Source of the DNA: Microthyrium microscopicum
Taxonomy: Eukaryota
Direction of reading: 5' to 3'
DNA length: 64,000 bases
NCBI GenBank assembly: GCA_010405405.1
Contig: MU004234.1
Coordinates: forward strand, 833,275-897,274
The number at the start of each line of letters is the position of its first letter. The stretch's first letter is position 1. Positions 1 through 50,428 of this stretch are shown in pieces. Position numbers and translations under genes: made by a program. Under the pieces are notes generated by a model that did not search any database, had not been told where the DNA came from, and saw only the letters and a program-made list of their open reading frames with translations.

Positions 1-496
1 GTTATTTTAATCTTAGTAATCTACTTTGTGATCGTATTAAGTTTTTAGTTAAAACGCGTCTTAAGATATGTTAGTAAAGGGGCTCTATTTATAGTTAAAG
101 CTAGGTAGAACACTAGTTATTTAACGTAGTTTTATGCTATAATAAAGAACGCGTAGTATTGTATAAAATTAGCTATTAGTTAATTAAGGAACGATCGTAT
201 TAAATCCCTCTCTTTAAATATAAGTCCTCTTAATAGTACTTTAATTTCTCTTTATACTCCTATAAGTAGTAGTTTTAGGTTATCTTTTCGTTTCTATATT
301 GCCTCGTTTTTAATATAGGTAGCCTTCGTAATAATAATAACTATCTATTATGAATCTTTATCTATCTCTATAGCGCTAGCTATTACTTACGTCTAGTTAA
401 AAGTTACACTATTGTAATAGTCTTAATAAGATGAATCTAATGATAATGGTTTTATAGAATAATTCTAAGAAATTAATCTTTTAGTATGATGATGCT
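1..496. repeat. Unclassified RIP-mutated AT-rich repeat fragment
   Basis: TpA-rich and CpA/TpG-depleted. It does not align with the Gypsy copy at 14438-23826, whose homology to this block starts only near position 497. Confidence 0.5.
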
Positions 497-618: not shown

Positions 619-2112
619 ATAGCTTCTTTAGATATTTTAAAGAAGAGTAGTTCTTAAAAGTCTAATAAGGAAAACTTTTCTTATTTAAATACCTATTAGA
701 AAATTATTAACGCTTTAAAGGAGAATAGGTAGGAGTAACTCTTACCTTATATAATCTATTTATATAAAAAGATTAAGACTAAGGTTCTATCTTCTTTACT
801 AAGTTATAAAGAAATTTCTATAGAGTTAGTTTATAACTTAGTTAAGTATTATTCTTATTTTATAAGTTTCTAGCTAATTAACTAAATCCTAAAGACTAAT
901 AAGAAAAAAGAAAATCTCTTTAGTAATACCTTTAGTAACGTCTCTTATCCTTACTATAAGTTTCTAATACCTTTTATAATACTAAAAATATCTTATTAAA
1001 TAATTTCTATTAATAATACTTCTACTTAGAAATTAGTATATATAATAGAAAGTTTAGACTTATTAGAAAGTAATTATAAAGCTAAGTATAGAACTTTTAT
1101 ATTCTTTAATTTATTATAAGTACGTAAGTTCTATATTAAGATTCTTATAATAGTTTTAACTTATAAATATAAGACTACTAAAAAAGAGTTAGTAAACTTA
1201 ATAAAATATTAAGAATTTATAAAGTAAAAGATAAAAAATTATAAAAATTAACTAGCTTTTACTAATAAAAGCCTAAAAGATATTTATAAGTATATTAAAA
1301 CTACTAAAGCTATATATAATAAATATAAGTAAAAGTTAAAATAAGTAAAACTTTAGAAATATAAACGTAAAATAAACTTAATAGTAATTTTAGAAAAGCT
1401 ATCTATTATGCGTAGTTATATAAATATAGTAAAACTAATTATTAAGAAGAGTATAAATTATTAAAAGAAGTAGGTTAAGTTCTTAAACTCTAATTAGTAT
1501 CTTACCTTTAAAGACGTTAAACTTTTAAGGAAGAAAGTAACTTAAGAATTACTCTTCTAGCTCTTAAAGTATTACTAAAAAAATAGAAGTATTTTAGTAA
1601 AAGTTACTAATATTTTAGTACTTATACTTTAGTAAGAAATCTATTAGTATCTAAGTACTTTATTCTTAACTAAGAATATTCTATTATTATTTTCTTATTT
1701 AAAGACTTCTATAATATATATAACTATAAAAGAAAAGTAGGAAAAGGCTTATAAGTATTATTAGAATTTATTATAAGTTTATACTTATAATAAGTATATT
1801 ATTAGTATATATAAAGAGAATAAAACTTTTTTCTTAAATAATGCTTATACTAACTATATATTTAATAGTAAGCCTTAAACTTATTTATTCTATAAGAACT
1901 ATATTTTACTATAAAGTTAGAAGAAAAGTCTAAATTCTATTATTATTTAGTTATCTACTTTTCTTAGTATTCCTAAGTTATTAATTAATAAAGAGTACTT
2001 TAGAATAGCTAAAATTATTATAAGATTAGTAGCTTAAGTAAAGCTCTTAAAGAATAAGAAGAAGAAGTAAATATAAGCTTTAAAGAGATAAGACTCTATA
2101 GGATTATAGTAG
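619..2112 (+). pseudogene. RIP-degraded antisense ORF of Gypsy copy 1 (unknown protein)
   Basis: Counterpart of 15233-16726 at offset 14614; see findings. Confidence 0.5.
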
Positions 2113-14399: not shown

Positions 14400-14436
14400 C
14401 ACGTGACAGCGCGTTACGCGTTCACCCTCGTCGCGT
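14400..14436 (+). promoter_or_regulatory. Cluster of MCB-like boxes (ACGCGT 14416-14421, GCGCGT 14409-14414, TCGCGT 14431-14436) plus CACGTG (14400-14405); probable displaced RPA3 promoter
   Basis: Motifs seen directly. With the retrotransposon removed at TSD GCGTC, they lie about 70-105 bp upstream of the RPA3 ATG. Confidence 0.6.
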
Positions 14437-14437
14437 C

Positions 14438-14588
14438 TGTTGCAAGAATATGAGAAATAAAGCGTGGTTGATTACTATGGGAGTCTAAGGGCCTAATATA
14501 GTTTTTAGGATACGCTAATTAGGAGATTATATTATCCCTAATTAGGTCCTATAATTATTAATCCCTTAGTATATTCTTTATTATAATA
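14438..14588 (-). repeat. 3' LTR of Gypsy copy 2
   Basis: 151 bp direct repeat with 23676-23826; starts with TGTTG immediately after the TSD. Confidence 0.93.
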
Positions 14589-15232
14589 TCTTCCCTTACT
14601 AGCGTAAACTCTCTTAAGATTATAAATCCTATAGCTATAGCTTTAATAAATAAGTAAAATAAAAAGAATATTATAATAACTAATAAGGAACCTTTACTTA
14701 AGAACTAAGTTTATTACTCTAGTTATACTAGATAGTAACCTCTAAGATATTATTCCTTAAGAACTCTTCCTAAGATCTTAGTTAAACTATTATAAATAGT
14801 ACTTAAGTATTTATAGCTTCTTAATCCTTTTAGGAAGGTTTGTCTATATAGGAGCTATTAGTAGTAATATATTAAGGAATTATAAAGAGTTTATATAGAT
14901 ATACTAAGGCTACTTAATCTAGTAAGGAATATATATAATCTATATATTAAGGCCTTAAAGGGTAAAATTTATAAAAAGTAATATATAAGTAGTAATAAAG
15001 AACTAGGTAGTAATTACTAGTTTAAGTAAATATAGAGATAAAAGCCTAATCCTATGTTTATAAAGCTTTATAATTTATTATCTTCTCTTCTTCTTCTTTA
15101 TTATACTTCTATAATATTTTTAAGCTAGTAGAAGTAGATTCTCTTTTATACTTTTAATATTATTAAATATAAGTAACTTTATATATTCTCCTTACTTAAA
15201 ACTTATTATTTATACTTCCTAGGGTTCTTAAA

Positions 15233-16726
15233 ATAGCTTCTCTAGGTACTCTAAAGAAGGATAGCTCTTAGAAGTCTAATAAGGAAAACTCTTCTTATTT
15301 AGGTACTTATTAGAAGATTATTAATACTCTAAAGAAGGATAAGTAGAAGTAGCTTTTACCTTATATAATCTATTTACGTAAGAAGGTTAAGGCTAAGGTT
15401 TTATTTCTTTTACTAAGTTATAAAGAAACTCCTAAGAAATTAGTTTATAACTTAATTAAGCGTTATTCTTATTCTATAAGTTTCTAGCTAATTAACTAAA
15501 TCCTAGAAGCTAATAAGAAGAAGGAAGATCTCTTTAGTAATACTTTTAATAATGTCTCTTATTCTTACTATAAGTTTCTAGTACCTTTTATAATGCTAAG
15601 AATATCTTATTAAATAATTCCTATTAATAATACTCTTACTTAAGGATTAATATATATAATAGGAAGTCTAGACTTATTAGAAAGTAATTATAAAGCTAAG
15701 TATAGAACTTCTATACCCTTTAACTTATTATAAGTATATAACTTCTATATTAAAACTTTTATAATAGTTTTAACTTATAAGTATAAGGCTACTAAAAAGG
15801 AGTTAGTAAACTTAGTAAAGTACTAAGAGTTTATAAAGTAAAAAGTAAAAGGTTATAAAGATTAACTAGCCTTTGCTAATAAGAGCCTAAAAGATACTTA
15901 TAAGTATATTAAAATTACTAAAGCTATATATAATAAACGTAAGTAGGAGTTAAAGTAAATAAGACTTTAAAAACATAAACATAAAATAAGCTTAATAATA
16001 ATTCTAAAAAAGCTATTTACTATATATAGTTATATAAATATAGTAGAACTAACTACTAAGAAGAGTATAAATTATTAAGAAAAGTAAGTTAAGTTCCTAG
16101 ACTCTAATTAGTATTCTACCTTTAAGAACGTTAAACTCTTAAGAGAGAAAGTAACTTAGGAATTACTCTTCTAGCTCTTAAAATATTACTAGAAGAATAA
16201 TAGTATTCTAATAAAGATTATTAATATCCTAATACTTATATCTTAGTAAGAAATCTATTAGTATTTAAGTACTTTACTCTTAACTAGAAATATCCTATCG
16301 TTATCTTCTTATTTAAAGACTTCTATAATATATATAACTATAAGAGTAAAGTAAGAAAAGGCTTATATACGTTACTAGGACTTATTACGAGTTTATACTT
16401 ATAATAGGTACGTTATTAGTATACGTAAAGAGAATAAGGCTTCTTTCCTAAATAGCGCCTATATTAATTATATATTTAATAGTAAACCTTAAACTTATTT
16501 ATTCTATAAGGACTACGTCTTACTATAGAGTTAGAAGAAAGGTCTAAATTCTACTATTATTTAGTTGTCTACTTCTCTTAGTATTTCTAAGTTACTAATT
16601 AATAAAAAGTACTTTAGAATAGCTAAAATTACTATAGGATTAGTAGCCTAGGCAAAGCTCTTAAAGAATAAGAAAAAGAAGTAGGCATAGGCCTTAAAGA
16701 GATAGGACTCTATAGAATTATAGTAA
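15233..16726 (+). pseudogene. RIP-degraded ~497-codon antisense ORF inside Gypsy copy 2 (unknown, coiled-coil-like protein)
   Basis: One frame opens at AAA-ATA-GCT (a RIP-mutated ATG in a fungal Kozak context). It had fewer stops than the other two frames in the stretch counted, and all stops are TAA/TAG. De-RIP translation is protein-like and Glu/Lys/Gln-rich. Confidence 0.55.
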
Positions 16727-17129
16727 AATATATAGTAGTAGTTCTTTAATATTCCTATATTTTCTAGTCTTATCTTATTAATTTATTAAAGGATAGACTT
16801 TAGTAATAGTCCTAAGGATTACTAAAAAAATCTAAAAATAACTTATTATATTTAAATATCCTTAGTAATAGTCTTAAAGATTACTAGGGAGATCTAAGAA
16901 TTTAGCTTATTTATTATAGCTTATAATAATTTACTTAAATTAATAATAAAATAAAAGTAATTTCTTATAAATAGTTTTTTAAATAAATATAATTAGGAAA
17001 GGTTATAAAAGAGATAATAAAAGATTAATTTTTCTTTTTTTTCTTATAGGTATCTTACCTATATCTATACGTAAGATAATTTCTTATCTAGGAGTAGCCT
17101 TCTACTATCTTTATCTTAATCTTAAATAT

Positions 17130-20100
17130 TATAGGCTAGTACTAGGACGTATAGAACTACTAGGCATTATAATTAGCCTAAATATATTAGTATCCTATAA
17201 GAATCCTTTAGTTATATCTATCTCTTATAGTAGACTAAGTTTAAAGTAATCTATAAAAAGAACTTCTACTTTTATAATATCTAGTAATAAAGGATTAATA
17301 CCCTAATAGTCTTCTCTAAGATTAGATACCTATTTATATAGATCTATTACCTTTAGTATAGGCATATAGGCAATTAGGGTAGTAATCTTATTATAGCTTC
17401 TTAGCCTTAATAATTTATTTCCTTACTCTTATTATTCTAGTAATATAAAGATTAATTCTTATTTTACTATAGCTAGGAGGATTTCCTTCCTTACTAAGCT
17501 TTAATTTAGGAAGGTAAAAATATTATTATTCTTCTTCTTTACTAAATCTTATAATATTATAGAATATTCTACCTTCTATATAATTTACTCTATCTACTCT
17601 AGATTACTTTATACTAAAGCTAAAATTAAGCTAGAAGAAATATATTCTAACGCTATAGGAGTCTCTAAATTATTACTTAGGTTATAAATAGTTACTATAA
17701 AGCGTTTCTTTTCTTATTTATAAATACCTACTTTAGCTTCTTAAACTTTTCTTATAAGGTTAAGAGAAATAGTAGATAGACCTAAGTAATATCTCCTAGT
17801 ACTAGACCTCTTAATATTAATTAACTCTACTAAAAGGTTTCTTAATTTATTAAGCTAGTCTTTCTTAGTTATAGTAAATATATCTATCTTATTTCTACGC
17901 TCTTTATTTAGAACGCCTTTAAAATTATCCTTACTTAGTTACTTATACTTAGGATATAGCTAGTTTTAGTAATAGTATTTATTTTCTTTCTACGTATATA
18001 CCTATATAAGGCAATTCTTATAGATAAGGTTTCTAAGCACTCTTTTATTAAGTATTTTAAGAGTGTATATTCTTAAAGGGTAGGCCTTTAAGACTTTATA
18101 AAGGCTAAACTATACTACTTAGAACTTAGTTTTATTTAAGTTTTTAAGGAGCATATAAGAACCTATAAAGAACTTAATAATAGAGTCCTTTTTTAAAATT
18201 ATATTACTATTAATAAGGTTTAAAGCTATAGCTTATTTTAATAAGGCATTATAATAGACTTATCTAATAGTTCTAACCTTCTCTAGATAATCTTTAGCAA
18301 TTATATAGATAAGAGGTATAGTATTAATTAATTTAGCCTATTTATCTTTCTTTACCTAGCTTATTTTAAAGTCCTTAAGATCTCTCCTATAGATAAAGAA
18401 GAAGAGAGATATTCCTAACGTAGTATAAGCTTATACTCTAGTAGTATAAACTACTTAATCTAGGTATAAATCCTAACTAGCTATAAGTTTTCTTTCTAGG
18501 AACTTAGTTAGGAATATACCTAGTAAGCTATTAAATCTCTTAACCTTCCTATTAGACTAAAAGTTATATAGAGCTATTAAGTAGTGCTTAGTCTTTATCT
18601 ATTATAATAAGGATAAAATTACGTCTAAGATAAACTAAGGTCTATTATCTAAGGTTAATAATTAAGGAGAACTATATTTTAAGACAATTTTTCTATAGAT
18701 AAATTCTATAACTATAAGAGTAGTAGTATTTAGTACTACTTCTATAATAGGCTATCCTATAGCATAGTTAATTATATAGATAATATACTAGTTTTTAAGA
18801 AAACTCTATAGAAATTTATTAATTAGGTTAATTTCCTAAGCCTTAAATAGCTATAAGTTTTATACTTAATAGTAGGACCTACGCTTAGGCCTACTTTAAT
18901 TTATCTATTAAACTTAATATATAGGACAAAACTAGGTAAATTCTTAGAAGTTATCCTCTATCCTTAGCTATTAACCTTCTAGTTTAAGGATATTAGTAAG
19001 GCTTATATATAATAAGTACCTATACTAATTATATACTTTCTTAATAAAGTCTTAGTAGTAGAAGGAGTAAATATAGAGTAAACTAGTAAGTATCTTAGCT
19101 TTAGTAGAATTTTTCTCTAAGAATAGATATCTATATTTCTTCTTAATATCTTTATTAAGGTTAATCTAAAAATAATTAAGAATGCTTTTTTAAAGCCTCT
19201 TCTATACGCTAATAAGGATAATATAATCTTTCTTTTTTAACGCTTCTTATAAGCCCTATATATAGAAAGCTTCTTATTCTTTTTACTCTTATAAGGGTTC
19301 TAATAGAGTAGCTTATACCTTAGAAGATAAGTTATTATTATTATCTTTAGGCTCTATTTCTTAAATAATATTAATCTATCTTTCTTAAAAGTTTAAGTAG
19401 TAATTAAGAGTATTAGGAACTATTACTTAGAAACCCTTATAATACGTAAAGATAAGATTAAATTCTTAGAACTCTTTAATCTATTAAGTAATATATTAAG
19501 TATTATTCTTAATTATATTTATATACTATAAGCTATTATAATTTATAATTACTTTAGTAGTCTTNNNNNNNNNNNNNNNNNNNNNNNNNNNNNNNNNNNN
19601 NNNNNNNNNNNNNNNNNNNNNNNNNNNNNNNNNNNNNNNNNNNNNNNNNNNNNNNNNNNNNNNNNNNNNNNNNNNNNNNNNNNNNNNNNNNNNNNNNNNN
19701 NNNNNNNNNNNNNNNNNNNNNNNNNNNNNNNNNNNNNNNNNNNNNNNNNNNNNNNNNNNNNNNNNNNNNNNNNNNNNNNNNNNNNNNNNNNNNNNNNNNN
19801 NNNNNNNNNNNNNNNNNNNNNNNNNNNNNNNNNNNNNNNNNNNNNNNNNNNNNNNNNNNNNNNNNNNNNNNNNNNNNNNNNNNNNNNNNNNNNNNNNNNN
19901 NNNNNNNNNNNNNNNNNNNNNNNNNNNNNNNNNNNNNNNNNNNNNNNNNNNNNNNNNNNNNNNNNNNNNNNNNNNNNNNNNNNNNNNNNNNNNNNNNNNN
20001 NNNNNNNNNNNNNNNNNNNNNNNNNNNNNNNNNNNNNNNNNNNNNNNNNNNNNNNNNNNNNNNNNNNNNNNNNNNNNNNNNNNNNNNNNNNNNNNNNNNN

Positions 20101-21300
20101 NNNNNNNNNNNNNNNNNNNNNNNNNNNNNNNNNNNNNNNTTCTTAATATCTTTTTCTACTATATAGACTTACTAATAGCTTAATAAGAGATTAAGCTTAG
20201 AGAAGAATCTTACTCTACTAATAGTATTAAAATATTTATTAATTTATAGTAAAGAATAAGTATCCTTACGCGTAATTATATTAAGTAGATAGTAGTTAAT
20301 ATATATTCTCTATTTTTCTTCTAGCTTTAGTATAAATAAGATAAGGAAACCCTAAGGACTTCCTAAGACTCTAATAAGTCCTTTAATAAGTAGTTCTTAA
20401 ATTTACTTTTCCTACTCTTCTAGTTATAGGCTAGATATCTAATAATAAGCCTAATTATAAGGAGAAGCGTTCTTTATAAGGATTTTATAATTAAACTTAG
20501 AATATAGAGAAAGTTTAGGAAAGGTATAACAAAAAGACTTATAGTAATTATTTAAAAGTTTCTATATACCTTTATTTTCTAGAGTAAGTTTATTAATATT
20601 AAGGTTATTAGTTATTAAGAGGATATTAGGCTATTTCTATATTCTATAAATTAGCTAAAGAATGCTCTTAACTTTATCTTCTACTCTTTTTACTCTATTT
20701 TAAAGTACTTAAAAGATTATATAGAGAGAGCTAGCTATAAACTACTCTATTTATTCTAAGTAGCTTTCCTTATTCTAAAGAGGCTCTACCTAGCGTCTTA
20801 TAGTAAGCTTATAAGTATATAAGCTCCTTAAGTATTACTCTATAAGCTTAATTTACTTTATTATCTAATTAATTTATAGATTATATAACTAGAACTATAA
20901 AAGTCTAAAAATAATATTAAGATTAGAAATATTTAGGATATAAGCCTTAAAGTAGCTATAAAAGGTCCTAATATAATAAGATAAGTAAATCCTAAAGAAA
21001 GTTATAACTATATAGCTATCTATAAGAGTAACTTCTTTCTTTAGGATAAGTATTATAGAAGCTTTAAGTTTTTTAATAATCTTTTAACTAATATAAATAA
21101 AGTTAGCTCCTAAGTTTAGGAAAGCTATAATCTTAATAAAATAATTTTTATAATATAAGCAAATAGGTAGATATAAAAGAGTATTATTATATTTACTTAT
21201 ATAGTTAAAGAAAGCTTATTAATTATTATATAAATAAGTAAGGTATTCTAATTTTAAGCTAGAAGATTTCTATTTATCTCTTAATAATAGTAGTTTTTTA
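17130..21300 (-). pseudogene. RIP-degraded pol (RT-RH-INT plus C-terminal extension) of Gypsy copy 2; boundaries approximate
   Basis: RT, RNase H and integrase motifs are recognisable after reversing C>T/G>A changes. Confidence 0.8.
19565..20139. other. Assembly gap (575 N)
   Basis: Run of N. Confidence 1.
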
Positions 21301-23675
21301 AACCTTATTATCGCTAGTTAGGCTTTTTATAATTTATAGTATAGTAACTAAGTTTACTATAATTTTAGTACTTAAGTTTAGAGTTATCTATAGAAGCTTT
21401 CCTACCTTTAGAGTCCTTTTTATAAGAGAGCTATAACTTCTTATTAGAGTTAAATTTCTTAGAGCGTTAAGTATTACGTTATTCTTTAAAATAGTAACTA
21501 TAGCTATTTATAGCATTAAGCTATCTTAAATTTTTATTATTTAACTTAAGCTTATTATTAGTATAGCTTTTACTATTAACTTCTTTAAGATATTCCTTAG
21601 AATTAGTATTTAGAATAAGCTCTTTATCTTCTTTAAAACTAGAGAAGATTTTATTAAGCTACTCTAGCTTATAAGCGTTATAAATATTACGCATATTTTT
21701 ATAGGAGTCTATATTATATTTAATAATTTCTTATTTAAAGGCTAAAATATTAACTATAAGGTTAAGAATAGTACTATGCCTATACTTAGCTTTAAGAATA
21801 ACCTATTCTTTAAGGCCTCCTTAGATTTAGATATCTATTTTATAATTAGTAGGTATAGGATTTATTTAAGTCTATAAGATATAAAGATAATAGATAAATT
21901 CCTTAGTAAATAAAACCTATAATATATAATCTTACTAAATACTAACTTTAAGTATATCTTTTTTAATGCTAAATATAGGTTAAAAGTAGATAAAGAAGTA
22001 AAATAAACTTTTAAGTATCTTAAACTCTTCTATAGCCTATTACTAGGCTAAGTTAGCCTATAGGAGACATTACTTAATAAGAAGATATTCTTTAACCTTA
22101 GTAATTTTCTACTACTTAGGTAAAGCAGAATCTAATAGGAGAATATTCTTACTAGCCTTAAAAGTATAAAGGAGGCTCTTAGCCTAAGCATTATACTTAC
22201 TTAGTTTCCTAGAGAATAAACTATTAAGAAGTATCTTAAACTTAGTTAAATATTATCTCTATTCCTAAGAAACGTCCCTTATTATCTTAATAAGTTTTTA
22301 AGGACTAAAAGTTTAGAAAAGCAATTTAATAGTCTTATTTAACTCTTTACTTAGCTTTTCTATAAGGTCTAGGTAAGTAATACCTATTTATAAAGTTTTC
22401 TAAGTTAAAGCTTAAGTTTAGGCATAAGCCTTAATTTTATTTACCTAGTAATCTTAGGTATATAGAGTAAACTTACTTATATTAAGGCAAGAAGTTAATT
22501 TAGTAATATAATTTATTATCTTTTGCTACTAAGTATATTAGACGTCCTTTATAAGTTTAGAGCTATAATCTTATTTACTTTGTTTATTAGTAGTAGAGTA
22601 AAATAACACTTCCTAAAGAAGAATAGGCCTATTTATAAACTACTAATTTCTATTATTATTATATTAGAAAGTTTAGTTATAAGCCTAAGAAACGTAGTTA
22701 GGTCTCTTAAGAGTATAGTTTTAAGCCTAAAAGAAAGTTTATAGTTTAGCAAGAGAATAGTTAATAGTTTAGAGATTAACTTAATACGTACTAGTAGAAT
22801 AGTTTAAGACTTAGAGCCCTAATTACTAAACGTTAGTAACCTAAGTTATAAGGTTAAGACTAGAATTTAGTATATTAAAAAGGTTATTTAGTAATATAAG
22901 AGTAAGTTACTTATCCTAAGGACTTAAGTTAGTAACCTAGGCTTAGTATTATACCTACTAAGTATCTTATTCTATAGCTTAGGCTATAATATTATTATGC
23001 TAGTTATTTATTTTAGTAAAGAAGAGTAATAGTTTTAATAAAGGATATAATCTTAGTAAAGTAGGGAAAGAGTCTTAAGGTCTAAAAGTTTTTATACTAA
23101 AGTTAGTTAAATAGAATCTAGAGTTAAGAGATTATTCTAAGGTAGATTTTTATACTTCCTTAGTATAGATAAGATCTTAATCTAATTTCTTAAGATAACC
23201 TAAGGCTAAGAGTTTACGTCGTTACTTATTAGCTTTAATCTATATAGTAAAGTTCTTATAACGTTATTCTAAGGGATTTTCTAAGGAGAAGTTTCTATAT
23301 TTTGTCTAATAGCTACGTAATTAACGTAATAAAAATTAGTAAGGATAAAGAGGGTATTATTATAGAAGAGATAATTCTTATAATATATTTAATAATCCTT
23401 AAAGTAGTAGTTTAAATTAAAGATAATTTAAGATATTTTTAGGATATATTATAGTAAGAAATATTATTATATATAAATCTTAAGAATTATTTCCTAATAT
23501 ATAGTTACTAAGCATTAGGCTATAATAAGGCTAGCTAATTAGAGAATAGTATTCTTAGAGTATATCTTACTAGATATTAATCCTAAGTAATTATTAATAA
23601 TAAAGTAAATCTAGAAATTTCTATAAGAGGTCTATTATCTAAAGGTCTTAATTAAATTAAATTATTACTACTAGA

Positions 23676-23826
23676 TATTATAAGAATATAAGAAATAAAG
23701 CGTGGTTAATTACTATAAGAGTCTAAGGGCCTAATATAGTTTTTAGGATATGCTGATTAGGGGATTATGTTATCCCTAATTAGGTCCTACGATTACTAAT
23801 CCCTTGGCATGTTCTTCATCACAACA
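23676..23826 (-). repeat. 5' LTR of Gypsy copy 2
   Basis: 151 bp direct repeat; ends in CAACA followed by TSD GCGTC. Confidence 0.93.
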
Positions 23827-23897
23827 GCGTCAAATCAACTCATTCTCAACGAAATACATCTAGCATTCTCATAATTTACTTCTAAACAGTCAAGATC

Positions 23898-41787: not shown

Positions 41788-43858
41788 CGCAGCGAAGCAC
41801 GCCCTGCGGATAAAGAACTCTCAATGAAAGAAGACCCTCCATCCTGAAAATCCTAGAAGAACCCATCCTTTAAAGATGACCTTTGCCGCGGAGTTCTTGG
41901 TATTCAATAGGGGTGCAGCTGTCGTGAGAAAGAATCAGACGAGTTGCCCAAATTGAGCCAAACAGTAGCCCGTACGCCAGCCAAAGGCGCAACACACTGC
42001 AAGGTACGCGCTCGGGGGCTTGCCAAGCCAATGAACCAGGCCTTTTGGACCATATATCAGCCTGATGAATTTATGCGCGCCGATTTTGGGGTGGAATAAT
42101 GATGATACCTTTTTTCAGCTGGAGCAGTACAATAGGTTGGGTTGCTCGATGCCACTGATCCCCAGAGAAGTGTGTGGTATTTGCGGAGGGCCATATTATA
42201 TCCGTCAAAAGCTCAAATTACCTTTTTATATTGTTATTAATCAGGCTTCGAATCTATATGATCGAGATTAAAACTGGAAAGTATCTTTCGTGGTGTCAGT
42301 TTTGCCCCGAGAGCGTTGCTTTTGTAGAGGTTAAGAGTGGGCCAATGTTAATCCGCCACCCTAAAAACACTATCCCGCCACCCTAAAATCACTATCCCGC
42401 CTCCATAGTAATCTAGATCAGCTACTAGTCCTAAATAGGAAATAAATATTTTTTTTTTGCTACTTATTAGGATTAGCGCTATTAAGTATACTTACTTATC
42501 TTAATATTGCTAAAATTCTAACTTTATTTCTTATTTTTAGCAAAATTCTACTACTACTCTACTAAAATCTACTAATACTTCCTTTAACTATAACTTTATT
42601 AAATAGTAATTAAATAATATATAGATAATAAGAATTATTCCTTTTATAAAGTAGTTTATAAAGTAATATAAAATTATAGTAAAATTTATAGTTATACTAT
42701 AATTAAAAAGTAATTTAAAACTTAAAAAGATGCTAATTTTTCTTACGTCTACTATCTTAAATATAATTAATACTTAATCTATCTTTCTATCTTTCTTAGA
42801 ATATAAGAACTTACTATTAAAGAAGTAAACTATCTATTTTAATATATTATTAAATAGCGTATAAATATTAATAATAGCTAAATATAAAATATTAAAGTTA
42901 AATCTAATTATTATAACTATCTTTTATCTTAAGATTCTATAAAATACCCTTAATATTATTAAGATATATTAAAATATATTAATAATAGTAGAAAGATTAA
43001 TAATTATATAGAATAGAACTAGAAATTAAAGTAGATATATTCTATACTTATTAAGAATAAGACTATTATAATAATTTTATAGAATATTTATAATTAGTAA
43101 ATATATACTTAAATTAAATATTTAAGTAATAAAATACTTATAGAGGTATTAATTTAAGACCTTAAAGTTAATAAAGAACTTATTTATAAATATTTTATAT
43201 CTTTAGAGCTTTATTTATAATATATTTTCTTTACTATACTTTTATAGTTAAAGCTTTATTAGACTTATTTAGATATCTTATTATTAAATATTACTTATAG
43301 TATTAATAAATATAAAATACTACTTCTTTACTTTATTAGTATTAATTTAGTAAATAAATACTTCTTTTTAAAGTTTTATTTTATAATAAGTAAATTAAAA
43401 GAGGATTATATCTAAGCCTTTAAAGTATTTAATTATTCTATATACTATAGTAGTATTAAATTACTAAATATTATACTTACTAACTATTATTAAGCCTTTA
43501 AGAATATATTAAATTAGGTTCTATTAGTATCTTAACTTATTTACTTATTTTACTTTAATAAAGCTATTTATTACTAATTTAAACTAGCCTTTAAAACTAA
43601 GGAATATATAAAAGGTAGTCTTAGTTATCTTAAAGTACTAATAGAAAAGGATTCTATATAAAATATTTAATAAAAGGTTAGTTCTTTAGCTCTTTATTAA
43701 AGATAGTTTACTAATAAATTACTAAGTAGTTTATTCTTTAATTAAAGAAAAGTATAACGTTACCTAGCTTAATTTTAACGCTAAATATTTTACCTCTTAT
43801 TCTATATTAGTTTCTTATCTAAATAATACTTAAATACTATTTAAAAAGTAATTTATTA

Positions 43859-45060
43859 TTATTAAATCTTGTTTATTGTCTTTTAGCTACGCTAATAGGC
43901 TATATAGACGCTACTCTTAATAAGCGAGTAAAAACCTTTATCTAATTAGCTAATCTACCTAAATCTAGCTAAGTATAACTCGCTCTAGGCCTAAGGCCTA
44001 GTCTAGCTTTAGCTAATCTCTATATATTTAGTAAACTAAGGCGCTAACTATATAAAGGAAAACCCTACTATTATATTCTATAGGCTAATCTGTGCTAAGG
44101 CTAATAATACTATGCTACCCTATTAGCTTCCTAAGCTATAAAAGTATTAGTAGGTTGGGAGAGCTAAATTTTGGGTAGTATCTAACTGTAGTACCTCTCT
44201 AGGCTAGTATTTATTATAGGTTATTATTCTTCTATTTAGTCTACTGCTTTAAGTTCTTAAAGTTGCCAATATTATTGTCCCCTAAGGGGCTAAGATTCCT
44301 TCCTTATTATTATATTAGATCTCTTTATTCGTACTGTAATACTAAGTCTAAGGTAGCGTTAATAGTTTACTAGGAGCTATTTATCTACGCTATGCTTTAC
44401 TTTTAAGCTAAGATCTAGGGTCCTTTAGACTAGTATATTTTAGGTTACTTTCCCTAAGTCTGCTAACTTTTTCTATAGCGCTGTATTGCTAACTTATAGG
44501 TACTATACTTACTAAGTTGTAGTGTCCCTAAATTCTATAAGTTTCTACTATGTTATTTAGTCCGATCCTTACTTTACGTAGCTAGGATTTTAGTTTTACT
44601 AAGCTAGGGCCAATCGTCTAATCTAATTGCTAAGAGCTGTAAAAGAATTAGCTTTAGTATACTAATTTTACTATACTTTAGCGATGTTGTAGCTTATTTT
44701 TATATAGCTTTACGTACCGTATAGCTATAGCTAGTTTCTAATTATATAATTTTAACGCTAGTCCGTTGTTAGTTAGTAAGGCTTTGATAAGGATGATCTT
44801 ATAGCTATATATAGCGGTTACGTAATACAAAAATTTGTACCTTTCGCGACGTGTTAAAAAGAGCTATAGCTCGTCCTCTATACCTACTAAAAAAGGAAGG
44901 ATAACCTTCCCTAAAAAGAAGTAAACGTGGCTTTAAAAGTGAGTAACGATTACCTTTTTAGGGTAGTAGGAGAGACGGGAATCGAACCTGTGCTTTACGG
45001 ATTCTTAAATAGGTAGGGCCTGCCGCAAGATTACAAGTACTACCACTATACTACTCCCCC
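43859..45060 (-). mobile_element. tRNA-derived SINE-like non-LTR insertion (~1.2 kb)
   Basis: Absent from monomer B; 17 bp TSD TAAAAAGTAATTTATTA (43842-43858, 45061-45077); tRNA-like 5' head; A-rich 3' end. Confidence 0.75.
44967..45060 (-). pseudogene. tRNA-like head of the SINE (Pol III A and B boxes; anticodon not assignable)
   Basis: GGGGGAG/CTCTCCT acceptor stem; A box TAGTATAGTGG (45053-45043); B box GGTTCGATTCC (44988-44978); an extra ~20 nt in the anticodon-loop region. Confidence 0.75.
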
Positions 45061-48000
45061 TAAAAAGTAATTTATTAAAGCTTTTATAATAGAATTTAAG
45101 TATTTTAGTACTTTTATAACTTTACTATTAGAAGGACTCTATTTAAGCCTAAAATCTTAGCTAAAATCTTCTAAAATAGACCTCTATATAGTTATAAAGA
45201 ATATTAAACTTATAGTTAATACTTAATATACTAAATTAAAAAGTATTTTAGAATTAGACTCTATTTAAATCTCTTATAATATTAGTATATATATAATTTT
45301 TATTCTTTTTTAAGATTTATAATTTCTTATTTTAAATATAGCTTATATTATAATTAGAAAGTAATATTAAAGATATAGAAATAAAAATATTATATTAAAA
45401 TATTTTTGCTACTATACTAAGATATTTACTAAAATAAATAATATTATTTACTTTTATATAATATAAAAATATTTTATATTTAATAACTATTAGTAAATAA
45501 ATTTTATAAATATTAATCTATATTAATATTATAATTAATCTAAATTTAGTAATACTTCTTAGCTACTTTTAGGTTTATAATTTATACTTTCTTTATTAGA
45601 ATTAGTTCTTTCTATTCTACCTCTAAATATTATATATACTTTAAGTTATTTATATATAGAATAAGCTTTATCTTTAACTAATAGAATATAAAGCTACTAA
45701 GAAATTAAGTTATAGCTTTTTACTAATATTATTAATAGTTAAATCGTTACTAAAGCTATAGATTATAAGAATATTTTATAAGAAGTTACTAAAACTATAG
45801 TTATATAAGCTTATAAAGTTATTAATCTTATTAACTCTTTACTACCTTAAAAATATTAAAAATAAAATATTATTTCTTTATATAAGGCTTTTTTAGTAGA
45901 TTAATCTCTAACTCTCTTTTATATACTATTTATATATAAATAGAAGGAATATAATAATCTAGTAATAGAATTATAAATACTTTAAGCTAAGATAGTACTT
46001 ATATATAGAGTACGTAAAGAATATAAATAGAATAGAAAATATAAATCTTATAAAGGAATTATAATATCTCTAACTTATAAAGGCTATAATAGTAGAGAAA
46101 TAATTATATTAACTTTATAAACTTATAGTAGTAAAGAATAAGCTATTTATACTTTAAATAGTATTAATTTTAATTAAAATAGCTTTAAGATAAAGTAATT
46201 ACTATAAGTAGTAGATAGTAATAAAAGTTATACTTTAAGATTTATACTACTTAAGCGCTAATAATACTAATAGTACTAATAGTATAACTATACGCTAATA
46301 CTTATTACTTCTAAAAAATATATTTATTTCCTATTTAAGACTAGTAACTAATCTAGATTACTATAGAGGCAGAATAGTAATTTTAAAGTAGTAGGATAGT
46401 ATTTTTAGGGTAGTAAATTAATATTAGTCTTATTAGCTAATGTTAATTTACTACCTTAAAAATACTATCTTACTACTCTAAAATTACTATTTTACCTTTA
46501 TAGTAATCTAGATTAGCTACTAGTCCTAAATAGGAAATAAATATATTTTTTCTACTACTTATTAAGATTAATACTACTAAGTATACTTACTTATCTTAAT
46601 ATTACTAAAATCCTAACTTTATCTCTTATTTTTAGTAAAATTTTATTACTACTTTATTAAAATTTACTAATACTTTCTTTAACTATAACTCTATTAAATA
46701 GTAAATAAATAATATATAGATAATAAAGATTATTTCTTTTATAAAGTAGCTTATAAAGTAATATAAAATTATAGTAAAATTTATAGTTATACTATAGTTA
46801 AAAAGTAATCTAAAATTTAAAAAAATACTAATTTGTTTTATATTTATTATTTTAAATATAATTAATACTTAACCTACTTCTTTATCTTTTTTAGAATATA
46901 AGAACCTACTATTAAAGAAGTAGAATATTTATTTTAATATATTATTAAATAGTATATAGATATTAATAATAGCTAGATATAGAATATTAAAGTTAAATCT
47001 AATTATTATAACTATTTCTTATTTTAAGATTCTATAGGATACTCTTAATATTATTAAGACGTATTAAAATATATTAATAGTAGTAGAAAAATTAATAATT
47101 ATATAAAATAAAGCTAAGAATTAAAGTAAATATATTCTATACTTATTAAGAATAAGGCTATTATAATAATTTTATAAAATATTTATAATTAGTAAATATA
47201 TACTTAAATTAAATATTTAGGTAGTAAAATACTTATAGAAGTATTAATTTAAAACCTTAAAGTTAATAAAGAACTTATTTATAAATATCTTATATCTTTA
47301 GAGCTTTATTTATAATATATCTTTTTTATTATACTTTTATAGTTAAAGCTCTATTAAACTTATCTAGATATTATATTATTAAATACTATTTATAGTATTA
47401 ATAAATATAAAATACTACTTCTTTACTTTACTAGTATTAATTTAGTAAATAAATACTTTTCTATAAGGTTTTATTTTATAATAAGTAAATTAGAAAAAGA
47501 TTATATTTAAGCCTTTAAAATATTTAATTATTTTATATACTATAATAGTATTAAATTATTAAATATTATACTTACTAACTATTATTAAGCTTTTAAGAAT
47601 ACGTTAAATTAGATTCTATTAGTAGCTTAATTTATTTACTTATTTTATCTTAATAAAGCTATCTATTACTAGTTTAAACTAGCTTTTAAAACTAAGGAAT
47701 ATATAAAAGGTAGTCCTAATTATTTTAAAGTACTAGTAGAGAAGGATTCTATATAAGATATCTAGTAAAAGATTAGTTTTTTAGCTCTTTATTAAAGATA
47801 GTTTATTAATAAATTATTAAGTAATTTACTTTTTAACTAAGAAAGAGTATAATACTACTTAGCTTAATTTTAATATTAAATACTTTACTTTTTATTCTAT
47901 ATTAGTTTCTTATCTAAATAATACTTAAATACTATTTAAAGAGTAATTTACTAAAGCTTTTATAGTAGAATTTAAGTATTTTAGTACTTTTATAACTTTA

Positions 48001-48683
48001 TTATTAAAAAGACTCTATTAAGGCTTAAAATCTTAGCTAAAATCTTCTAAAATAGATCTCTATATAGTTATAAAGAATATTAAACTTATAGTTAATACTT
48101 AGTATACTAGATTAAAAAGTATTTTAGAATTAGACTTTATTTAAATTTCTTATAATACTAGTATATATATAATTTTTATTTTTTCTTAAAATTTATAGCT
48201 CTTTATCTTAAATATAGCTTATATTATAATTAAAGAGTAATATTAAAAATATAGAGATAAGAATATTATATTAGAATACTTTTACTACTATATTAAAATA
48301 TTTATTAAGATAAATAATATTATTTATTCTTATATAATATAAGAATATCTTATATTTAATAATTATTAGTAAATAGATTCTATAGATATTAATTTATATT
48401 AGTATTATAATTAATCTAAATCTAGTAATACTTCTTAGCTACCTTTAAGCTTATAATTTATACCTTCTTTACTAAAACTAGTCTCTTTTATTCTATCTCT
48501 AAATATTATATACGTTTTAGGTTATTTATATATAGAATAAGCTTTATTTTTAATTAGTAGAATATAAAGCTATTAGAAGATTAAGTTATAGCTCTTTGCT
48601 AGTATTATTAATAATTAAATTACTACTAAAGCTATAAATTATAAGAATATTTTATAAGAAGTTACTAAAACTATAGTTATATA

Positions 48684-49399
48684 TATCGTGAAAAAATTAT
48701 CATTGATTTAAGCTATCCGATAGCACTAATAATAGCTATAACTATTATACGTAGTAGGTCATCTAAGGAGTTAGAAATAACTTTAAAATAACTGTAATAA
48801 CCTACGATAACCTAAAGATTAATAAATTAGATAAAAGGATTTTACTAAAGTTCTTAAGTGTAATAACTAATTAACTAATCTAGCTATGCGCCTAAAGATC
48901 TTGCTATAGGCTAAAATATAGGGTTTAGTACCTTTGGTTTAATCTAGAAATAAAAANNNNNNNNNNNNNNNNNNNNNNNNNNNNNNNNNNNNNNNNNNNN
49001 NNNNNNNNNNNNNNNNNNNNNNNNNNNNNNNNNNNNNNNNNNNNNNNNNNNAACTTTTAAGATATAAAAATAATAAAAACATATCTAGATAGAGCTTAAC
49101 GAGCTCTAAATAGTAATATAAAAATTATACCTTAAAGTTGCCTATTCGGGTTACGATATCTCCAATAACTACGATAGATTTCAAATAACTACGATAGATT
49201 TTAAATAACTATGATAGATTTTTGATGTATTTAAAATAACTACGATGAGTTTAAAATAACTAGAATAACTAGAATTATTTAGTACTTTATCCGATGTACA
49301 TCTAATGCGCATCTAATGTCTTTAAAATAACTAAAATAACCGTTTTACCGTCGGATACGTAGTTTAATTTGCGATGCATAATAATTTTTTCACGATTAG
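48684..49399. mobile_element. Small TIR (MITE-like) element nested in MULE monomer B at a TA site
   Basis: Absent from monomer A; inverted repeat ATCGTGAAAAAATTAT (48685-48700 / 49381-49396); 20 bp tandem repeat x3 at 49161-49220; contains an N gap. Confidence 0.75.
48957..49051. other. Assembly gap (95 N)
   Basis: Run of N. Confidence 1.
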
Positions 49400-50428
49400 T
49401 AAGCCTATAAAGTTATTAATTTTACTAACTTTTTATTACCTTAAAAATATTAAAAATAGGATATTATTTTCTTATATAAGGCTCTTTTAATAAATTAATC
49501 TTTAACTCTTTTTTATATACTATTTATATATAAATAAAAGGAATGTAATAATCTAGTAATAGAATTATAAGTACTTTAAGCTAAGATAGTATTTATATAT
49601 AGAGTATATAGAGAATATAAATAAGGTAGAGAATATAGATCTTATAAAGGAACTATAATACCTTTAACTTATAAAAGCTATAGTAATAAAAAAATAACTA
49701 TATTAGCTTTATAGAGTTATAATAGTAGAGAATAAGCTATTTACGTTTTAAATAGTATTAATTTTAATTAAAATAACTTTAAAATAAAGTAATTACTATA
49801 AGTAGTAGATAGTAATAAAAGTTATGCTTTAAGATCTATACTACTTAAGTACTAGTAGTGCTAATAATGCTAACGATATAACTACACGTTAGCACTTATT
49901 ACTTCTAGAAAATATATTTATTTCCTATTTAAGACTAGCAGCTAATCTAGATTACTATGGAGGCGGGATAGTGATTTTAGGGTAGCGGGATAGTGTTTTT
50001 GGGGTGGCGGATTAACATTGGCCTTAAGAGTGACTAGAGTAAAAGAGGCGATAATAACTTGCCTATACTACTGTAATATCATTTTGTTGAACAATCTTTT
50101 CACCTCACTGATTCATTTTATTTTACTAGTTCTACAAGGATTAAGAGACGAACCTCGATGATCAGTTCTTCTCCTGAGCTGGACTCAGTAACATACATCA
50201 CCACTATCTGAGTCTCTGAGATATGCCGTATGGGGGAGAAGAAGGATTATGATGCATATGCACAAGGCTAAGAAAAGCAATCATAGCCCATACAAAATAC
50301 GGCCTGTAGCTTTGTCAGCCACTTCAAGTTGCGTCCAGAGATACTCTAGGGTCACTCTCGTGTTTGCATAATCCAGCCTGAGCCCATCCTGTACATAGGA
50401 GTCAGGACCGAGAATTTCCAGTTTCAGA

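Follow-up and report, generated by a model that had tools for sequence, protein, structure and literature searches.

The question raised by this locus is whether a Gypsy retrotransposon heavily altered by RIP once carried, between pol and its 3' LTR, a protein-coding gene antisense to its other genes and, if so, what kept that gene in place. The locus lies in a window of 64,000 nucleotides from the fungus Microthyrium microscopicum (GenBank assembly GCA_010405405.1, contig MU004234.1, positions 833,275 to 897,274 of the forward strand), to which the positions below refer. An earlier note, made from the letters of this window, had described a hidden plus-strand frame of about 500 codons that converges on pol and had proposed a captured or accessory gene.

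The element and its copies

The window contains RIP-hit repeats, with a composite RIP index of 1.4-2.0 over the Gypsy element, which occupies positions 14438-23826 with gag and pol on the minus strand. Paired LTR comparison placed the 151-nt 3' LTR at 14438..14588 and the 5' LTR at 23676..23826 (both minus strand) between the two halves of a 5-bp target duplication (14433-14437 and 23827-23831); 5-bp duplications were likewise noted in each of the 8 copies for which a single retrieved stretch spanned both LTRs. A short polypurine tract, its position read from the sequence, adjoins the 3' LTR at 14589..14599 (minus strand) and is followed on the plus strand by a non-coding stretch (14600..15205), the presumed antisense promoter and leader, which includes a CT-rich tract at 15081-15100. 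Beyond the antisense frame (15233..16726, plus strand) are, at the right-hand edge of the cassette, a direct repeat spaced by 62 bp (16800..16897), which lacks one 62-nt unit in one copy and also shows internal hairpin-like symmetry, an A/T-tract spacer (16900..17050) between the converging frame and pol, pol itself (17129..21137, minus strand) and a gag region (21138..23560, minus strand), the last assigned by position, with no Pfam hit and with approximate frame and limits. Thus the Gypsy element and the orientation and position of the frame were confirmed by the LTRs, the target duplication and a pol frame ending near 17129, and the CT-rich leader and A/T spacer of the earlier description were both present. 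Complete copies of the element measure 9.6 kb; the window copy contains an N gap (19565-20139) of 575 letters in place of 787 in complete copies. A second window copy of the frame (619..2112, plus strand) proved colinear with the first and gap-free over 4456 nt, as expected from the claim that neither had a net indel. The stretch upstream of this second copy is split by a nested insertion, and window positions 1-494 belong to a different RIPped repeat of about 6.8 kb, inserted in the leader of the copy that comes first in the window. A further cluster of RIPped repeats, at 42341-50026, contains copies in both direct and inverted orientation, has stop counts that are biased by frame, and likely consists of nested transposons.

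The copy with the fewest mutations has a single pol frame that runs through protease, RT, RNase H, integrase and a tail of about 300 aa. Pfam recovered only RVT_1 and then RT_RNaseH from this pol and missed the integrase core; integrase matches were found downstream of RT/RNase H, and the protease motif was identified by eye. All 21 database relatives of pol were Gypsy-type, at 19-29% identity, and a natural relative of the pol linker was assigned to the HHCC family. The chromodomain core pattern was absent, in purine/pyrimidine classes, after the integrase GPY/F motif (the protein-level form of the pattern matched 2 of 3 natural carriers), and because of this absence the element is probably not a chromovirus; the Pfam blank for a chromodomain is uninformative alone, since Pfam also missed the integrase core. 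The pol tail past GPY/F (17129-18070, minus strand), in which transversions preferred third codon positions (7/11), has no recognisable domain and is a candidate targeting domain. The sole intact relative of the element seen was an un-RIPped host frame of 1010 codons (G000:C13:843211-846243; L056:1212-4244), a piece of which, of about 130 aa, is 30% identical to the element's RNase H-integrase linker and HHCC finger. Searches found no longer relatives of this natural linker piece and no intact relative of the cassette-bearing element, and the two related metagenome loci were distant, short and without the 3' region.

Genome searches, whose counts are lower bounds, gave 40 LTR matches that pair into 20 elements, with no solo LTRs among the at least 40 matches. 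The element's LTR pairs carried no transversions (21 transitions and no transversion in the pair of the window element) and the insertions are therefore young. Copies were situated in GC-rich unique DNA, and several bear nested insertions. Targeting of tRNA genes was ruled out, as no tRNA gene was found in 27 sources.

An antisense coding frame in cassette A

Since RIP produces transitions only, the coding status of the frame, hereafter ORF A of cassette A, was assessed with RIP-invariant measures. On the plus strand, 36 stops were counted in the frame at 15233-16726 versus 68 and 71 in the other two frames and 52-60 in the minus frames. Codons of the pyrimidine-purine-purine class, which are RIP-invariant and include all possible stops, numbered 37/69/71 in the plus frames (chi2 p=0.002) and 58/52/61 in the minus frames (p=0.69). 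In a purine/pyrimidine codon model, the frame of ORF A was ahead of the runner-up among the six frames by 16 nats after training on pol and by 19 nats after training on host genes, whereas no frame led in the flanks; an order-5 purine/pyrimidine Markov model, too weak for the purpose, left the score of ORF A within the shuffled range. Columns that were stops in all 12 copies made up 27/496 (5.4%) of ORF A, 88/1407 (6.3%) of pol and 10-13% of shifted frames, and the codon-class usage of the frame agreed with that of pol and of the host ORFs of the window. These findings indicate that the hidden antisense ORF of the earlier note is, very probably, a real plus-strand protein-coding frame of about 500-520 codons.

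The frame measured 1494 nt in 11 copies and 3 nt less in one, no frameshift was noted among the 12, and a literal ATG was present at the proposed start in one of them. Stops numbered 36-37 in every copy (36 and 37 in the two window copies) and were all TAA or TAG save two TGA in one copy, both of which fell in columns that are sense in another copy. The gene is dead in this genome. CA/TG sites were nearly saturated, with 0-5 CA remaining per copy, and the back-mutated peptide of the earlier note was not reproduced. The proposed end of the frame at 16726 was not confirmed, as the two stop columns there were mixed TAG/TAA like internal stop columns. Two of the three stop columns that follow are read as sense in one copy; beyond them, the first column with TAA in 12 of 12 copies lies at 16787, and the frame may therefore run on to 16789.

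The central coiled coil proposed earlier gained no support from periodicity tests, in which no 42-codon window showed significant 3.5-residue periodicity (best permutation p 0.15), although residues from about 170 to 290 were rich in purine-only codons, that is, in charged residues. A fold model contained long helices at a pLDDT of 30.6, which makes the fold unusable. There was no sign of a signal peptide in ORF A, with no more than 6 of its first 30 codons able to encode large apolar residues, nor of a transmembrane anchor, the most apolar 19-codon window (11/19) lying past codon 498. In these respects, and in its antisense orientation, ORF A does not resemble an env-like ORF3. Zn2Cys6-like spacing (C-x2-C-x6-C-x5/12-C-x2-C-x6/8-C) was absent from the three plus frames of A and B in a test that used RIP-invariant codon classes and would miss an intron-split motif; the DUF3716 six-cysteine domain gave no hit in Pfam, which is blunted by RIP. 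The idea of a PD-(D/E)XK protein was dropped when the probe PF20516 matched nowhere, controls included.

RIP similarly blunted homology searches with cassette A. A profile built from 2 of the 12 copies found no homologue of ORF A among 1.84 billion representatives; Pfam gave nothing usable, its one match being to a coiled-coil family at E=4.2 in 3 of 12 members; no ORF A match was seen in PHROGs or PDB sequences and no relative in viral and prokaryote contigs. Within this genome, no paralogue outside the element was found at E<=0.001. Thus a captured host gene, as the earlier note had proposed, received no backing from either the genome or the databases, in searches that are weak on RIPped sequence; indeed all such blanks carry little weight, because the pol of the window copy was also invisible to Pfam. 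One possible RNA run matched LTR ends only and carries no weight on expression.

An 88-codon plus-strand frame opposite the pol tail (window about 16983-17247; L046:2616-2880) was stop-free in 19-20 copies. This frame has its third codon positions in common with those of the pol tail and few stops up to L046:3318, and is probably a shadow of pol. A second exon or spliced constant region over the pol tail was rejected: the host-trained model favoured the pol frame, stop avoidance was not significant (p=0.09) and a canonical branch point was present in no copy.

Two cassettes on one backbone

A genome search returned 12 full and 15 flank-only matches (lower bounds), the latter representing 8 elements in which a different segment of about 1.9 kb, cassette B, replaces the segment specific to type A (15206..16775). 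Cassette B starts at the same place as A, after the common leader, and occupies the position between window 15205 and 16776-16799, while LTR, 3' non-coding stretch, spacer and gag-pol are common to both types. As the 40 LTR matches pair into 20 elements, each element found has either A (12) or B (8), and no cassette-less element was seen among the 20; a contig joint that skips the cassette, one side of which spans 21 letters and whose loose end resembles that of the B allele, was not counted as such. Plus frame 0 of cassette B outranked the other five frames in the 3' half only and was weak in the 5' half (first 270 codons), the stop skew overall was not significant (71/77/92), and a private 1-nt deletion was present in one of the 8 copies. 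A weak match to cassette B on contig C12 was dismissed as AT-rich noise.

The two cassettes were unalignable at the DNA level. At the protein level, a profile of A scored 50-63 bits on plus frame 0 of B as compared with 26+/-5.5 bits for 200 shuffles, but RIPped coding DNA used as control reached 48 bits, the reciprocal score (B profile on A) of 20 was below that of pol pieces (33), the signal disappeared with composition correction, and hhalign gave a probability of 2.9%. Codon-class alignment of A with B scored 136 versus 108+/-10 for 300 shuffles (maximum 152), with 100-107 for other frames, up to 119 for controls and 207 for a positive control. Thus three tests chose the same frame and two of three the same C-terminal region, while RIPped controls narrowed or erased the margin, and we incline, on these comparisons, to the view that A and B are homologous.

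In purine/pyrimidine space, RT-RNase H of the 4 B copies tested was 99.9% identical to that of A, and 8 of 21 shared transversion sites in gag-pol showed all four combinations with cassette type whereas one was fixed between types; gag-pol thus recombines between A and B carriers. In contrast, the cassette flanks differed by 14 transversions per kb between types as compared with 1.5-1.7 within type, the non-coding stretch at 14600..15205 contained 7 transversions diagnostic of A or B, and one A copy carried B-type flank alleles. Given these flank differences next to a near-identical, recombining gag-pol, the behaviour of A and B is that of long-standing alternatives at a single locus, carried by a backbone that is young.

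The signs of selection also differed between ORF A and pol. Transversion columns at codon positions 3, 1 and 2 numbered 23/8/4 in pol and 10/12/10 in ORF A (p=0.007), that is, 23 of 35 versus 10 of 32 at third positions, and no third-position excess was seen in cassette B (6/14). The dN/dS estimate that the earlier note had proposed was obtained from transversions, with an omega for pol of 0.26 at all sites and 0.16 at shared sites, as expected under purifying selection, and for ORF A of 1.06 and 0.66, respectively, with no clear purifying signal. At shared sites, with 3 synonymous and 13 non-synonymous changes, ORF A did not differ from an omega of 1 (p=0.46), and the comparison of ORF A with pol by four-fold classification at shared sites gave p=0.21. 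Transversions shared by at least two copies were concentrated in the ORF (17 in 1494 nt versus 1 in 1043 nt of flank, p=0.001), although they cluster in a few tracts borne by the same copies and so are not independent events; all transversion columns, ORF A versus flanks, numbered 30 and 10 (p=0.052, borderline). In an alignment whose upstream flank omits the second window copy and whose flank indel count is inflated by homopolymer runs, there was one indel, of 3 nt, per 30 transversion columns in ORF A as compared with 6 per 10 in the flanks (Fisher p=0.004; p=0.049 with three B-type alleles of one recombinant copy dropped). The scarcity of indels, the one seen being in frame, together with the density of transversions indicates that the frame was kept while residues changed freely. 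Thus the frame persisted while amino-acid replacement in it proceeded near the neutral rate or above it, under a constraint clearly weaker than that on pol. With an omega in ORF A no different from 1, relaxed and positive selection account for the data equally well, and the two are inseparable given the small counts, the clustering in recombinant tracts and the four-fold result.

Explanations and known systems

These results could be accounted for if cassette A were a RIP-killed accessory gene encoded by the element, a member of a Ty3/Gypsy family seemingly without a chromodomain. As the genomic RNA runs the opposite way, the ORF would need an antisense transcript of its own, perhaps from a promoter in the 3' non-coding stretch or the 3' LTR and with the common CT-rich leader as the likely region of transcript start. 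The predicted product is a soluble, largely charged protein with neither signal peptide nor six-cysteine cluster. Such a protein would aid the element against the host, most likely by counter-silencing or by binding of a host factor, and alternative versions would thus persist, their most likely means of exchange being a template switch, within the common flanks, from one co-packaged RNA to another. It is probable that the ORF was kept because it was useful to the element. Universal retention, maintenance of the frame, fast change and the existence of two versions are together best fitted by a protein whose target in the host keeps changing, silencing machinery for example, and a rapidly evolving accessory protein engaged in conflict with the host is a plausible reading, if a little short of probable. 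The fuller proposal, in which A and B would be deeply diverged antisense alleles on a common gag-pol under diversifying selection, forming a polymorphic counter-defence or specificity locus and an undescribed protein family, is doubtful.

Neutral or relaxed cargo, in which a once-functional gene of the host or of another element has stayed open only through a recent burst and B is older and more decayed, is unlikely. An omega of about 1 in ORF A, the weak signal and lack of third-position excess in B and the youth of the insertions are as cargo would have them, but the single in-frame indel per 30 transversion columns, the lack of a cassette-less copy among 20 and of a host paralogue in this genome, and the greater density of inherited changes in the ORF than in its flanks are not. 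The presence of a cassette in 20 of 20 elements also fits a structural or replication helper under ordinary constraint, acting in particle assembly, in nuclear entry of the integration complex or, as a substitute for a chromodomain, in the choice of target, with A and B as interchangeable homologues. The missing chromodomain pattern, the location of copies in GC-rich unique DNA, the possible remote homology of A and B and the nuclear roles proposed for plant aORF-3R (PMC7264820) agree with this, yet a core helper should be under purifying selection like pol, which ORF A does not clearly show, and A and B are too different for DNA-level alignment over the cassette; we consider such a helper quite unlikely.

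The deep divergence of the two versions, the recombining backbone that they have in common and fast amino-acid change also recall a selfish module of the toxin-antidote or incompatibility type, with A and B as two specificities that favour their carriers, for which fungal spore-killer genes offer an analogy. This is improbable, as domain evidence is lacking (the PF20516 probe failed on its controls as well), both types occur in one genome, and all copies are RIP-dead without visible cost. Also improbable, and to a like degree, is that the antisense RNA rather than a protein matters, or that the frame has few stops by chance. Antisense RNA roles have been discussed (PMC7264820), no homologue was found, and in 27 columns stops are indistinguishable from RIP-hit sense codons; against this, it is in precisely this frame that codon classes are used as in pol and host genes, a literal ATG is present in one copy, and indels that would shift the frame are avoided. 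The reading preferred here remains that of an accessory protein in conflict with the host: the constant presence of an extra gene, its two versions and a rate of change above that of pol speak for host conflict and against a replication chore. Given an intact relative, A and B would provide a natural swap experiment, and the transversion and purine/pyrimidine tests offer a way to read coding status and selection in RIP-saturated repeats.

Among the closest known systems is brtn of the Boty/BcGypsy1 elements of Botrytis cinerea and Sclerotinia, reportedly described by Zhao and colleagues in 2011. The brtn gene has several exons whereas cassette A reads as a single frame, on a comparison of descriptions. 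As in cassette A, brtn is an additional gene of a fungal Ty3/Gypsy element, lying antisense between pol and the 3' LTR (PMC7264820; excerpts of PMC4227169 and PMC8365987), so that the view of such ORFs as unusual in fungal Gypsy elements was overstated. Boty pol has a chromodomain according to the excerpt of PMC4227169, whereas pol of the M. microscopicum element shows no chromodomain pattern, and the excerpts on brtn describe no polymorphism like that of A and B. Titles and abstract openings, with thin coverage of subscription journals, yielded no report of a fungal LTR element whose recombining backbone carries either of two antisense cassettes.

Boty brtn has been named as the fungal case of a reviewed class of antisense ORFs, aORF-3R (PMC7264820), whose plant members (maize Grande gene23, rice RIRE2, Silene Retand and PvRetro13) have the same position and orientation as ORF A, occur in all or most copies, resemble no host gene and have no assigned function, as has been the case for antisense extra ORFs of LTR retrotransposons for decades (PMC7264820). 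Similarly, ORF A is antisense between pol and the 3' LTR, and a cassette is present in most copies (12 A plus 8 B of 20, the coding status of B being weaker). In contrast with plant aORF-3R, which are conserved like other retrotransposon proteins (PMC7264820), ORF A did not show conservation like that of gag or pol, on small counts, and is less constrained than pol. Transcription and nuclear location have been shown for maize gene23, a precedent for the own promoter predicted for ORF A and for a nuclear protein (PMC7264820).

Bdelloid Vesta and Juno elements likewise carry, after pol, a variable third ORF that differs between related families (excerpt of PMC5408684). That ORF3 is identifiable (env-like, GDSL or DEDDy), is not described as antisense in the excerpt and varies between families (PMC5408684), whereas A and B segregate within one recombining family. 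The likeness to VANC of VANDAL elements, an accessory protein that acts against host silencing, is functional only, as VANDAL are plant DNA transposons and the comparison is by analogy (excerpts of PMC5735166 and PMC10398659). Antisense extra ORFs themselves were thus already known, and what is new here is the A/B cassette polymorphism and the contrast in rate between the ORF and pol.
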